A stretch of 51,671 nt of DNA, from the IMG/VR virus record IMGVR_UViG_2718218104_000010; one strand, written 5' to 3'. The stretch is from a virus. Lineage: Duplodnaviria; Heunggongvirae; Uroviricota; Caudoviricetes. The position numbers are program-made. Positions 42,001 through 48,000 of the stretch are shown in pieces; positions within the stretch are counted from its first letter, which is position 1, and each line of letters starts with the position of its first letter.

Positions 42001-45000
42001 GCGGAATTTCGGTATCCGGTTCAGAAATATGATTCACACAACGCTGGTTGTTCGTGCCGCTTACCGGGAGCAACCAGGGGTTTTCAAAATTCCGGTCCGG
42101 CCCAAAAAACGTCGTCGCTCGCTGAACAAATTCCGTTCCCGCTTTCCCGGTCGCCGCCAGGTATCTCGCGTAACGCCTCACACCATCCAGCATGGTCTCT
42201 GGTGGCACCCCCTCGCGCAATCTGGCCTTCCAGGCACTGAAAGCGGATTTCTTCGGGTTTGCCCCAGCACGCAACGGGTATTCCCGCCAGACCTGTTCGA
42301 ACACATCCGGATAATCCACTCGTCCCACAGACTGCCCGGTGCTTTCCGGGACTACCCGATCGGCTTCCCGCTGAATGGCGGAATCGGCTTCAGGCTGCTG
42401 CAGTTGGTGTGATTGCTCCGACCCTGCGGTCATCACCTGCTGCACAGCGCCCGAATCGGCTTCCGGTGTCGTGCCTGCTGGCTGACCAGGATTGACGGTC
42501 TGAACATCCCCTGCCTGGTTCGTGGTGTTTTTTTTGCCATGAACCATAGTGTTTTTGTCCTGTTCCTGTTCTTTCTCCTGCTCCTGTTCCTGTTCTTGGC
42601 TTCGAAGCCCCTTAAAAGCCCCTTCGAAGCCCCTTACCGAATTTCGGCTATTATTCCGCCTCACATCCAGATGGAAATCCGTTTTATATCTGTCGTAAAA
42701 CACTGACAGAAAAGCGTTTTCAGGTAATGATGCATACTCATTCCTGACACCTGCACAACGGTTATCGCCAGGCTTCAACGTTTCCCCAACCTGCCAGGCT
42801 GCCATTTCATGGACCCAGACCATCTCTGCATCATGGTCATAGCTACAAAAACCAGCTTCAACAGCCCTTTTAAGCCCCTTTGAAGCCCCTTCCAGACCAA
42901 GCCCGGTTTCATGAGCAAGGTATAAAACTGGCAGGTAATACAAACCCAGCATATTTGCGTGAGGGGATGTCATCAGGTAAAAAGCAACAACTTGCGCTTC
43001 TGCACCCGCCTTTCTAAGTTCTCTCCCCGTTTCTCCCAGCCAGAATCGCGGAGAAACTTTTGCGTAATCACGCATGGCTACCTCATCTGGTGCCGAACCT
43101 TCCTCCGGATATAATCTGTGGTTCCCAATCGACAGAACCAGAGGAGGTTCGACATGTATTTTTTGAAAAGCCTTTATCAGGCTCATGTATTAAATGTTGC
43201 AGCAACAAACCGCTGGTGTAACAGCCCCGAAATGCTCCCGGATTACAGAGCCTGGCTGCGCGCCGAAACATACCTTCGTCTCGACATATTGATTAGCGAA
43301 CTTCAAAAAGAGACTGCATCCATTCATAACCTTCAGGGTATCGACGCTGTTCGCATTCTGGTATCGCGCCATAGTGCTCTCTCAATAATTGAAGTGCGTC
43401 ATCTCTCTTTTTCTGAACTGATTTTCTTGCTTCAACCAGCTCTGGAATCAGCGAATATCCCGCCGGAAGTGATCCAATACCCACCTCATGTTGACGAGCA
43501 GTTACAAGATGTGCCATACAACCAGCGTGCTGGATTGACTCCCTGCTCAGAGGCTGAATGGGATCACTCTCTGCTGAAGAAATACCAAGATTTGTATAAT
43601 CCTCAATAAGCCCGGCACACGCTTCTGCATCAGCCAGCTTTATTCTGGTTTCCTTGCGCTGTTCTCTGGCTGACAAACGCCAGAGCAGCGCATTAGCTTT
43701 ATGTATCAACCACTCTGCCAGCTCCACATCAGATAAACCGCCACGCCAGATGTGCGGACTGTTTTCGTAAACGCTCAGTGTCAATTTTTTGTCATTACTC
43801 ATATTTATTACCCAATTAATGCACAGCCAGAGTGTTTCCTGCCGGGCCACCACGATTCATCTGATCGAACAGAACGATCGCTGATGCAACGAAATCATCA
43901 ATATCTTTCACCAGCCGTTCCTTCGTCTCTACCAACTCCCGAAAATAAGCGGAACTGTGGCTGCGCATTCGGGCCACCAGCGGAGGCGGCATCGCTTTTT
44001 CGATCGCTGGTAACAACGCCTGAATTTTTTTAACCGCATCAGGAGTGTCTTTCTCCACCCAGCGGAAAATTTTCTGAGTATTGCGAGCCATGGCTTCCGG
44101 ATGGCTGTCGTCATACAGTTCCGGGAACGTCATTCCCAGCTCGAAATACGCTTTGGTAATTTTCGCAGCCGGTACTTTTTCGCCGTCCGGATGCGCCCAG
44201 GCATTCATCGCCATGCGGATGTGTTCATGCTTGATTTTCATGAATCAACTCCGGCGCATTTGATGTGTTAACCTTACATCCAACAGGTAAACCGTCGGTT
44301 GGGTTAGGATAAATATCTGGGCGGATTTCATGCGGGGTAACTTCCCACTTCATTAGTTGGCATAACGGAATTACCTGCTTTGGGGGAACGCCAAAGCTAA
44401 ACCATTGCCAAACAGTCTGTTGAGCGACCCCCATATAACGACCTATTTCAGCCTGAGTGTATTTCTGCCTAATTTTTTCGCGAGTGCTATCTAGCATTTT
44501 GCCCTCCTCTAAAAACTATAAGCAAAGCCTACAATAAAAAACTGTATGCAATCAACAGTTTTTTATTGTGATGCTTTTAACAGTATTTACCTGTAAAATT
44601 GAATAATGATGAGCGCCCTAGAAGTATCTATGTACAGAATCAGCAAGCTTCTTCAGGAAACTGGATGGAGCCAGGCTGAGCTTGCCCGTAGAATTGGTGT
44701 GACACAACAAACTGTTCAACAATGGGTCAGCGGTAAGGCTACACCTAAAGCCTCAAGTTTGGATAAACTGGTTGAGGTTTCAGGGCATCCATTGCATTGG
44801 TTTTTATTGCCTCCTGAAGAGTGTGAGCAAATTTTCACCCCTGACACGATGAAAATTGGTCCTCGCCAACGCGAACTGCTCCAAGCTTTTAGTGCGTTTC
44901 CTGAGGAAGACCAAGAAAAAATGCTTCAAGAAATCAAAGACAAGAAAAAATCAATGGAAGAAACCATTGCTAGGTGGCTGGCGGCACAAAAAAGCCGCCG

Positions 45001-48000
45001 GGCGTGACCACAGTACAAGAAGAGGAGTTATGCCATGGGTACAGCCCTTTCTCCGATAGTTTCAGAATTCGAAACTACCGAACAAGAAAACAGTTACAAC
45101 GAATGGTTGCGCACTAAAGTAACGTCAAGCCTTGCAGACACTCGCCCCGCAATTCCACATGACGAGGTAATGGCTGAAATGGAAAATCTTATTGCTCAAA
45201 TTGCTGTAACTAACAAGAGCGAGTAATGTTACCCATTTTATGGCTACCGTCTGCTCGCGATGATTTGCGCCAGATCATAACTTACATCGCCAAGGAGAAC
45301 CCACCGGCAGCACGTAGACTAAAAATACGCATTGAAACATCGGTATTACCTCTATCTGAGCATCCGTACTTATATCCACCAAGCGAACGGGTTTCTGGAT
45401 TGAGAGAGATCGTGACCCACCCTAACTACATAATCCTGTACAGAGTAGCTGCTTCAAGCATTGAGATTGTAAGCGTGACACATTCTCGGCGACAATTTCC
45501 CTTCTCTATCTGAGTTGAACAATTTTCATACTCCCTCTTTCGAGGGATTTTTTTGCCCAAAACAACAATTAAAAACTGTTGACACAAAAACAGTTTTTTA
45601 TTGTAGATTACATACACCAACCACCCACCCCGCCCCACAGAACGCCGGGCAATACTTCGAGTTACCAAGCAGTGGTCAGGGGGTAAGTAGCCAGCCCGAG
45701 GCGTATGAACATGACGGCAGGGTTCAACTTTAATAACGATGCAGCAGGTTTTTGTTCCGCTACCCGGCGTTAAGGGGAAATGAGGTCAACATGGATACTA
45801 TCGATCTTGGCAACAACGAATCTCTGGTGTACGGCGTGTTTCCCAACCAGGACGGTACATTCACCGCGATGACGTATACCAAAAGCAAAACGTTTAAAAC
45901 CGAAAATGGTGCCCGTCGCTGGCTGGAAAGAAACTCAGGTGAGTGATATGGATTTCGACACAATCATGGAAAAGGCTTACGAAGAATACTTCGAAGGCCT
46001 TGCCGAAGGCGAGGAAGCTCTCAGCTTCAGTGAGTTTAAACAGGCGCTTTCCAGTTCGGCAAAATCTAACGACTAACGGAGTTAAAGATGGAATTTAAAG
46101 ATTTACTAAAAGAAATCCAGGAAATTGCAGCACATGCACTTCACCAACGTCTGAACGAAGTTGAATTAGAATCTGCAACGAAGAAATACATTGATAATAT
46201 GGCTCGTAATGTGCGCGATGCGTTTACCGGATTGTACTCTGTTTCGGTAACAAACAACCAGAATACTGAAGAAACTGCAAAGCGGATTGCCTCGGTGATG
46301 GGTTTTCATGTCGAGGAAAAGTATTCAAAAAAAGAATTCTGGAAAACTACAAAAAAATTGCAGAGCGAGAACTGTCATCTCCTGCGGCAATCGCTTCTTT
46401 CTATGAGGTAAGTTATTCAGATGACACAGGATTACCGGAACTGCTCTCATTACTTGAAAAATTCGGAATTATCATGAAAGGGACTGCGTCGGCGGATTTC
46501 ACATACTCAATGATGGCTGCTGATGGAGAGCCTTTTCCTCCCGAACTTAAAATAACCCCCGGCAATCATCCGATGGTAACAATAAGAGCAATAGAGAATT
46601 ACTGGTTTAATCCAGTTCAACAATAGTTGGTCTTTGCAATATTTTTAATGGGCCACTACGCCCTTAATCTCGGGCGGCGTTTAACTCTTTATTCAGTAAA
46701 TCAGACTGATACTGATTTGGCTTTGTAATGATACTGTCAAGTTTTGATATATGAAATTCAACATGTTCTGGACAGTTAAAAATGTAATAACCGCCCTTCT
46801 CTAAAAAGCCAGAAAGAGCGTTACAGGCAGGGCATGGTTTGTTTGGCATTTTATCCTCCATTAAGGGCTGAATTAAAAATGGAGACCAACACGCTGCTAC
46901 GTGTGGTCGTGCGCCGGACACAGATAAGAATCCGGCACTGACAGTTTACTGAAAGGATATATCCCTGAAAAGTCAGGGCATAACACGAAAGTGCACGGCG
47001 AAGTCCTTCTCCCTTAGAGCCGTCGTTAAATTTAATTCGACCGTGCGCTTCCGGTTGTGGCAATCCGCGAAATGGCGCGGCGGTAAGTATGGCGGGGTTA
47101 TTCTTTCCCCGTTGAGGACACCGGGTTGTCAGGTTGACCATACGCTTAAGTGACAACCCCGCTGCAACGCCCTCTGTTATCAATATTCTGGTGACATTTG
47201 GCGGTATCAGTTTTACTCCGTAACTGCTCTGCCGCCCTTTTTTAAAAGTGAATTTTGTGATGCGGTGAATGCGGCTCAGCGCACGCGGAACAGTTAAATC
47301 GGTAAAGCGGTCATTTGCTGAGTAACGAGAATGCTCTGTATCCGGCGTTAATTGTTAACTGGTTAACGTCACCTGGAGGCACCAGGCACCGCATCACAAA
47401 ATTCATTGTTGAGGACGCGATAATGGAAAAGTTATCATGTAATGCCAGCACGTCTGAACTTCGTTTCGAAATTGGCGTTATCACTGGAGACAAAACATTT
47501 ATTGAAGACGCCATTAAGCAGAGAAAACTCGAGCAGGACCTGTTAAATGAAGTATGCATTCCTTCAATGCTGGCTCGTCTGGACCTGCTGCAAAAAGGAT
47601 ATAAACAATGAATACAACATTTGCACTCGTTCTGACAGTTTATCTTGTTTCCGGCGAATCTCTTGAGCTGGTGACTGGCTTATACGGTTCAATGAAAGAA
47701 TGCATGGCTGCAGCAGCAGAACAAAAAATTCCCGGTAACTGTTATCCGGTAGATAAAACTACTCACACTAATAATAACGAAATACCGGCAGGACTTTAAA
47801 ACAGCACCGTAATTAATATCCGGTTTCATTTTTATATGCCAGCAATGGCAGGGATTTGTTCACCCTTAAATCTGTAATGAGGTTAAAACACAATGAGTAA
47901 AATCTTTATTTGCGCTGCTATTCCTGACGAACAGGCCATAAAAGAAGATAGCGCTGTTGCGGTGGCCACTGCCATTGAAGCCGGTGATGAGCGTCGCGCA

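Follow-up and report, generated by a model that had tools for sequence, protein, structure and literature searches.

Within a 51,671-nucleotide (nt) stretch of DNA recorded as the IMG/VR virus IMGVR_UViG_2718218104_000010 (Caudoviricetes; hereafter the window), we analyzed a block of three genes encoding a phage repressor, a short antitoxin and a ParE-family toxin, which lies between two clusters of a repeated 15-bp motif. This is very probably the immunity region of Sp4/CP-933M, a cryptic lambdoid prophage of Escherichia coli O157:H7, and it carries the operon paaR1-paaA1-parE1. A ParE toxin-antitoxin (TA) pair inside a lambdoid immunity region, under the control of CI-, Cro- and CII-like regulators, is a system and an idea already in the literature. 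A preceding sequence-only reading of the window had treated this arrangement as possibly new, which does not hold because the same reading has been published for the paralogous locus of prophage CP-933P (PMC8630535).

The window is collinear with the chromosome of E. coli O157:H7 Sakai, at 99.97% identity over positions 38840-51671, and the remainder matches too, except for IS629-related differences. The matching stretch is annotated in Sakai as 'prophage Sp4, lambda-like phage', adjoins yccA, and contains, in order, ECs_1071 (ydaT-like), ECs_1070 (ydaS-like), ECs_1069 ('phage repressor protein'), ECs_1068, and ECs_1067 ('plasmid stabilization system protein'). The repressor, antitoxin, and toxin genes of the block correspond to ECs_1069, ECs_1068, and ECs_1067, respectively, and many O157:H7 chromosomes match the 1.5-kb region at 100% identity. 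Sp4 is the Sakai name for CP-933M of EDL933 (PMC2884950), which carries a homolog of paaR2-paaA2-parE2 according to Jurenas et al. 2021 (PMC8630535). Since the window corresponds to CP-933M, the homolog mentioned there is the locus studied here. O157:H7 contains two paralogous systems, with PaaA1 failing to neutralize ParE2 and vice versa (2016 review, PMC4803016). Because the window holds one paaA-parE copy and O157:H7 genomes show two matching places, we identified the locus as paaR1-paaA1-parE1. A literature search for ECs1067-1069 returned no publication.

Repressor, antitoxin and toxin genes

Three intact open reading frames (ORFs) of 133, 63, and 95 amino acids (aa) lie on the same strand between the repeat clusters, as the sequence-only reading had described. 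The first (44606..45007, + strand; ECs_1069) encodes the PaaR1-type repressor, a CI analog. In a Pfam search of ten window proteins, with matches listed at E up to 0.1, it matched the helix-turn-helix (HTH) family HTH_3 at residues 13-58 (E 2.3e-12) and, weakly, Phage_CI_repr (E 7e-5). No Peptidase_S24 family was present among the best 25 of 35 matches (weak to strong), in agreement with the cI-like HTH protein without S24 autocleavage domain that had been expected. The best matches in the PDB were to the 434 repressor (E 3e-5), and the residues at the 434 positions TQQ..Q are kept. This search returned only generic 434-type HTH matches and no PaaR2 entry, which left the C-terminal domain without a solved-structure comparison.

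To represent the published paaR2-paaA2-parE2 system, we fetched a locus (L005) with 99% identity between its toxin and the solved ParE2 chain and with a regulator that begins with MQKKE. As MQKKE is the experimentally determined N-terminus of PaaR2 (PMC8630535), we took the L005 repressor to be PaaR2. The window proteins share 34% (regulator), 62% (antitoxin), and 65% (toxin) identity with those of L005. For the regulators, BLASTP aligned the C-terminal two-thirds (42% identity over 98 aa), with the last ~45 residues most alike, while the N-terminal DNA-binding parts could not be aligned. Judged by its sequence, the repressor is a two-domain CI analog composed of a 434-like HTH and a PaaR-type C-terminal oligomerization domain.

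The second gene (45035..45226, + strand; 63 aa; ECs_1068) starts 27 nt after the repressor gene and encodes the PaaA-type antitoxin, PaaA1. Its sole Pfam match was PF21217 PaaA2 (E 5.6e-19), with no DNA-binding family detected; it also matched PHROG 3936 (E 9e-43), and its best PDB match was PaaA2 of E. coli O157:H7 (3zbe/5cw7, E 1.4e-20). The sequence-only reading had remarked on an unusually short antitoxin without an obvious DNA-binding domain. The matched family is described as lacking such a domain and PaaA2 has no detectable DNA-binding motif (PMC8630535), which accounts for the remark.

The third gene (45226..45513, + strand; 95 aa; ECs_1067) encodes the ParE-family toxin, ParE1. The overlap of its start with the antitoxin stop amounts to exactly one base (A at 45226, within TAATG), just as had been noted. 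The proposed ParE/RelE-type fold was confirmed by its sole Pfam match, PF05016 ParE_toxin (E 2.9e-17), and by an end-to-end alignment with ParE2, its best PDB match (5cw7_B, E 3e-36; 67% identical to ParE2 residues 1-93). In the account of Hallez et al. 2010 given in the 2016 review, the toxins of both paralogs are toxic and are neutralized specifically by their cognate PaaA (PMC4803016).

Predicted operators, promoters and flanking regulators

The 15-bp motif ACAGTTTTTTATTGT occurs without mismatch at 44531-44545 (-), 44555-44569 (+), and 45590-45604 (+), and with one mismatch at 45565-45579 (-). A search allowing up to three mismatches yielded only one further match in the whole 51.7-kb window, and 0 of 100 dinucleotide-preserving shuffles reached five motif matches. 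All matches in the window to the degenerate pattern ACARTN7TGT fall at five operator sites. The two inverted motif pairs reported by the sequence-only reading are present, with outer coordinates (44528-44572 and 45565-45606) that were slightly generous but correct; the third site of the first cluster had been missed.

The first cluster is OR-like (right operator) and occupies the 108-bp intergenic region between the repressor gene and the divergent ydaS-like gene, with three 15-bp sites at 24-25 bp spacing. The OR1-like site ACAATAAAAAACTGT (44531..44545) lies over a predicted leftward promoter (PR), the OR2-like site ACAGTTTTTTATTGT (44555..44569) is located 24 bp from it, centre to centre, and the OR3-like site ACAGTATTTACCTGT (44580..44594), obtained by the pattern search, follows at 25 bp and abuts the -10 element of the predicted repressor promoter (PRM). 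The homoimmune relatives L002 and L003 keep all three sites unchanged but vary in the 9-nt spacer that separates OR1 from OR2. The second, OL-like (left operator) cluster comprises two sites 25 bp apart: ACAATTAAAAACTGT (45565..45579), again invariant in L002 and L003, and ACAGTTTTTTATTGT (45590..45604), which overlaps the spacer and -10 element of a predicted PL promoter. The latter site carries one change (T to A) in L002 and L003 that turns it into a perfect complement of the other OL site. Across the window, L002, and L003, variable positions amount to 1 of 75 in the operators vs 28 of 148 in neighboring non-coding DNA (Fisher p = 8e-5, with three sequences only).

In the heteroimmune relatives L004, L005, and L006 the motif is absent and different repeats stand at the same positions; those of L005 contain GTTTAGT, the consensus published for the PaaR2 region (PMC8630535). 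Ordered by overall repressor identity to the window, the operators are kept at 98% (L002, L003) and replaced at 65% (L004), 56% (L006), and 34% (L005). Among these relatives, the predicted operators change in step with the repressor's DNA-binding domain.

By analogy with the paralog, the repressor would bind the 15-bp pseudo-palindromic ACA[A/G]T-N5-N[C/T]TGT operators, three at OR and two at OL. The half-site of phage 434 is ACAA, and the half-sites here begin with ACAA or ACAG, a resemblance that is a lead and not a test. The product of the ydaS-like gene (44225..44497, - strand; 90 aa; Pfam PF15943 YdaS, E 8e-10; PHROG 35 transcriptional repressor, E 9e-29; ECs_1070), the putative Cro analog, has a recognition helix nearly identical to that of the repressor (GVAQQTVWQW vs GVTQQTVQQW), and the two HTHs are 54% identical over 28 aa including GV(A/T)QQTV.QW. 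A shared recognition helix is expected if YdaS and the repressor compete for the same sites.

The predicted PRM -10 hexamer TAAAAT (44594..44599, + strand), read from the sequence, precedes the repressor ATG by six bases. The region upstream of paaR2 in L005 has the same geometry (GATAAT-N6-ATG). Since leaderless translation of paaR2 mRNA has been demonstrated experimentally (PMC8630535), this shared geometry makes a leaderless repressor mRNA starting at 44606 likely. The predicted PR on the - strand consists of TTGATT followed by TAGGCT. Predicted PL (45579..45609, + strand) consists of TTGACA (45579-45584), N19 (N18 in relatives), and TAGATT (45604-45609), and faces away from the TA genes into ydfA-like, ydfB, DicF, and dicB. 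A block CTGTTGA...ACAGTTTTTTATTGTAG is common to predicted PR and PL, on opposite strands. In CP-933P, the PL analog PL933P, with OL operators beyond the TA genes, is repressed by both PaaR2 and YdaS (PMC8630535).

A terminator scan detected an intrinsic terminator after parE (45532..45557, + strand; TCCCTC-TTTC-GAGGGA followed by T7) and none between the repressor, antitoxin, and toxin genes. In L002 and L003 its stem and T-run are kept and the change is confined to the loop. With no terminator inside the block and one behind parE, paaA1 and parE1 would be expressed from the transcript of the repressor; co-transcription of the three genes has been reported for the paralog (PMC4803016).

The HTH protein could instead be a dedicated regulator of a self-contained three-component TA system (a 'split antitoxin') and not an immunity repressor, in which case the second repeat cluster would mark a module boundary. 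The system was indeed first described as a three-component TA operon with regulation and antitoxin on separate polypeptides (PMC3141249; PMC4803016), and the PaaA2-ParE2 complex is reported to add partial repression (PMC4803016). However, the same motif covers both the promoter region of the divergent ydaS-ydaT genes and a second promoter-like site with a perfect TTGACA facing ydfA-DicF-dicB, the repressor gene sits exactly at the cI/dicA position, YdaS has the recognition helix of the repressor, and PaaR2 was directly shown to repress the PR and PL analogs (PMC8630535). Because the operators also cover the promoter regions of both flanking early operons, we consider a split antitoxin very improbable and retain the assignment as immunity repressor.

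Downstream of ydaS, the ydaT-like gene (43816..44241, - strand; ECs_1071) encodes a 141-aa putative CII analog (Pfam PF06254 YdaT_toxin, E 1.2e-9; PHROG 163 'CII-like transcriptional activator', E 4e-46) that is 86% identical to the YdaT beside paaR2 in L005. Where ydaS ends and ydaT starts, a YdaT box TTGATTTTCATGAATCAA (44231..44248) forms a predicted OM/PRE-type site. It exactly matches the footprinted YdaT site 5'-TTGATTN6AATCAA-3', located at the end of ydaS in CP-933P (PMC9986795), and the same 18-mer is present in L002, L004, and L005; YdaT would be expected to bind here. Between ydaT and the replication genes, an ORF at 43118-43609 (+) lies on the opposite strand, at a position annotated in strain TR01 as 'ECs1072 family phage-associated protein'. 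Beyond OL follow DUF1391/ydfA, ydfB, DicF, and dicB. The DicF antisense small RNA (sRNA; Rfam RF00039) was located at 47186-47237 (+; 76.9 bits), where it precedes dicB within the operon that PL is predicted to drive.

Proposed role, distribution and module exchange

In the proposed switch, the repressor would act at OR to silence the leftward promoter that serves ydaS, ydaT, and the replication genes, and to control its own, probably leaderless, transcript. At OL it would silence the rightward promoter of the ydfA-DicF-dicB early operon. PaaA1 and ParE1 would be made from the repressor transcript in the lysogenic state, with PaaA1 neutralizing ParE1 by direct binding. PaaA1 is short, its homolog PaaA2 is reported to be labile and without a DNA-binding domain, and transcriptional control would be left to the phage repressor together with YdaS and YdaT. 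If the immunity region were lost or replaced, the labile antitoxin would no longer be made and the remaining ParE would poison the cell. Addiction is, by analogy, the most likely role of the pair. The sequence-only reading had named this function, and it is supported by experiments on the paralog, as paaR2-paaA2-parE2 stabilizes an unstable plasmid, i.e. is addictive (PMC8630535).

That reading had also suggested Rex-like exclusion, an abortive-infection defense in which ParE1 would be released on superinfection and the cell would die, thereby protecting the lysogen population. The position of the pair is that of lambda rexAB, and prophage TA systems have often been proposed as defense systems. 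However, PaaA and ParE match no PADLOC model and the repressor matches through its generic HTH only, no published phage-defense experiment on PaaA-ParE was found in the literature consulted, and the published function is plasmid stabilization, i.e. addiction (PMC8630535). We therefore regard exclusion as the main function as quite unlikely and keep addiction as the preferred role.

Several points weigh against the overall interpretation. The name paaR1-paaA1-parE1 rests on secondary citations and the Sp4/CP-933M mapping, and a 2011 paper that cites Hallez et al. 2010 for the three-component system writes 'paaR1-paaA1-parE3' (PMC3141249). None of the three predicted promoters was called by a simple/strict sigma-70 promoter scan; they were placed by eye and analogy, and predicted PR and PL have weak -10 elements (TAGGCT, TAGATT) and long spacers (18-19 nt). 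For the CP-933M copy, the sequence itself gives the gene families, the layout, the repeat statistics, and the joint change of operators and repressor DNA-binding domain, whereas binding to DNA, the positions of the promoters, co-transcription, toxicity, and addiction are proposed by analogy with the paralog, from which the experimental support comes. [quoted passage not shown] Finally, single-cell work on the paralog saw no ParE2 activity in either transcriptional state (PMC8630535), and for this reason the biological role remains a proposal.

Of 5426 complete E. coli genomes, 833 carry homologs of the paaA-parE stretch, spread over several sequence types. The layout was identical in all six contexts examined (6/6), with ydaT and ydaS leftward, the repressor, paaA, and parE rightward, and dicB further on. 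A search of deposited phage genomes for near-identical DNA returned short flanking matches only. Escherichia phage Evi is the only deposited phage genome with a ParE homolog, located in a paaR2-type module at the same position. The module studied here belongs essentially to prophages in E. coli chromosomes. These copies also bear on whether the module might be a decaying, non-functional remnant of a defective prophage. Sp4/CP-933M is a cryptic prophage with IS629 insertions, and the antitoxin gene is annotated as frameshifted in the relative L003. Against decay, none of the three ORFs is disrupted, matches to the paaA-parE stretch at 99% identity or more occur in 437 E. coli records, and at least 80% of the 1.5-kb region is present in 507 genomes. 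In addition, the operators are selectively conserved relative to their spacers, and the 2016 review, in its account of Hallez 2010, presents PaaA1 and ParE1 as a specific, working pair (PMC4803016). With intact ORFs, hundreds of near-identical genomic copies, and conserved operators, decay is exceedingly improbable.

Comparison of PaaR1- and PaaR2-type loci indicates that repressor/operator modules have been swapped around a conserved TA cassette. This is relevant to a proposal in the literature, according to which the TA pair guards the immunity region against recombination. In L006 (positions 1662-2459; E. coli 06-00048, NZ_CP015229.1), a ParE2-like paaA-parE pair is preceded by two tandem repressors, one PaaR2-like (the first; 72% to that of L005) and one PaaR1-like (the second; 56% to that of the window). 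The operators look PaaR2-type (GTTTAGT), with no obvious sites for the second repressor. The arrangement resembles an intermediate of recombination from one immunity type to another. In L003 (positions 2501-2693; E. coli Z1323CEC0014, NZ_CP148426.1), the frameshifted paaA annotation stands next to an intact parE, which could reflect an error in the sequence or tolerance of the toxin when its antitoxin is missing. Mixed arrangements such as that of L006 hint that modules are often exchanged around a TA cassette that stays fixed.

A non-coding leader after OL/PL, at 45626-45720 and extending to 45790, is nearly invariant in the window and in L002-L006 despite wholly different upstream operators. 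A structured RNA of the nut- or put-like type in this leader was considered and rejected, since Rfam gave no match, the fold z-score was +0.82, and compensatory pairs were absent. The leader may represent a conserved flank at which immunity modules recombine.

Two further readings would be more novel. In one, the PaaR1-type switch would constitute an uncharacterized immunity specificity (434-like helix, 15-bp ACA[A/G]T-N5-NYTGT operators, three at OR and two at OL), accompanied by a paaA-parE guard that travels with the repressor/operator module and penalizes its replacement. In the other, the cassette might also confer Rex-like exclusion. We consider these readings unlikely.

As a discovery the observation carries little weight, being correct but ordinary. 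What it still offers is descriptive: the PaaR1-type copy appears to have a DNA-binding specificity unlike that of the studied PaaR2 copy, and the anatomy is extended by the third OR site, the intrinsic terminator after parE, and the exact YdaT box. Ready targets for electrophoretic mobility shift assays (EMSA) and footprinting are the five predicted operators, the start predicted to be leaderless, and the YdaT box.

Further features were recorded elsewhere in the prophage. A sok antitoxin RNA lies at 36962-37136 (-; RF01794, 105.6 bits), and a hokD toxin gene is annotated nearby in the matching stretch of strain TR01, so that the same prophage carries a second, type I TA system. ALIL pseudoknot matches at 24127-24243 (+), 29075-29191 (-), and 38388-38504 (-) mark three IS3-family (IS629/IS1203-type) insertions, whose number and arrangement are unlike those of Sakai Sp4. 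The STnc100 sRNA at 31721-32237 (-; 138 bits) adjoins three tRNA genes, the ileZ-argN-argO cluster annotated in Sakai Sp4.

Comparison with known systems

The closest characterized system is paaR2-paaA2-parE2 (Hallez et al. 2010) in the immunity region of CP-933P, likewise a cryptic prophage of E. coli O157:H7 (Sp12; Jurenas et al. 2021, PMC8630535). There, PaaR2 is a functional CI analog that octamerizes, lacks a peptidase motif, and does not respond to mitomycin C, while YdaS and YdaT are the Cro and CII analogs. Both PaaR2 and YdaS bind to the repeats that separate the divergent genes, as documented for PaaR2 by EMSA, footprinting, and reporter fusions; the switch is bistable, and an explicit comparison with cI-rexA-rexB is made (PMC8630535). 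Both loci have ydaT and ydaS leftward and the repressor, paaA, and parE rightward, followed by OL/PL and the ydfA-dicB genes. They share the antitoxin Pfam family, toxins 65-67% identical, a conserved repressor C-terminal domain, an identical YdaT box, the same -10-to-ATG geometry, and the absence of a detected S24 domain. They differ in the repressor N-terminus, which is a 434-like HTH_3 here and an unrelated, MQKKE-starting domain in PaaR2, in their Cro analogs (only 17% identical), and in their operators (ACA[A/G]T-N5-NYTGT here vs GTTTAGT-containing repeats). Given these different DNA-binding domains, Cro analogs, and operators, the CP-933M and CP-933P loci would be heteroimmune. Differences from PaaA2 and ParE2 in the antitoxin C-terminus and the toxin N-terminal hairpin fit the reported lack of cross-neutralization (PMC4803016).

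The window block is a mirror image of lambda OR-cI-rexA-rexB-OL. As the sequence-only reading had recognized, it lies between the OR-like and OL-like clusters, divergent from ydaS and ydaT. In both phages the repressor gene is followed by accessory genes on the lysogenic transcript between OR and OL, three OR sites are spaced about 24-25 bp apart, cro-/cII-type genes are divergent, and an early leftward-type operon lies beyond OL. In contrast to lambda, no S24 domain was detected in the repressor, the accessory genes encode PaaA/ParE in place of RexAB, OL yielded only two sites, YdaS and YdaT stand as the Cro and CII analogs, and no N gene follows PL. With phage 434, the repressor shares the HTH, for which 434 is the best solved-structure match, and the TQQ..Q positions. 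However, identity is confined to the HTH, the operators are 15 bp and not 14 bp, the C-terminal domain is PaaR-type and not S24, and the specificity is predicted from the sequence. Classical type II parDE systems (RK2, Vibrio, Caulobacter) likewise combine a ParE-fold toxin with a small antitoxin encoded directly upstream in overlapping or abutting genes, but the antitoxin here is PaaA and not ParD. Since PaaA2 has no DNA-binding domain, autoregulation is handed to a separate repressor, that of the prophage itself.

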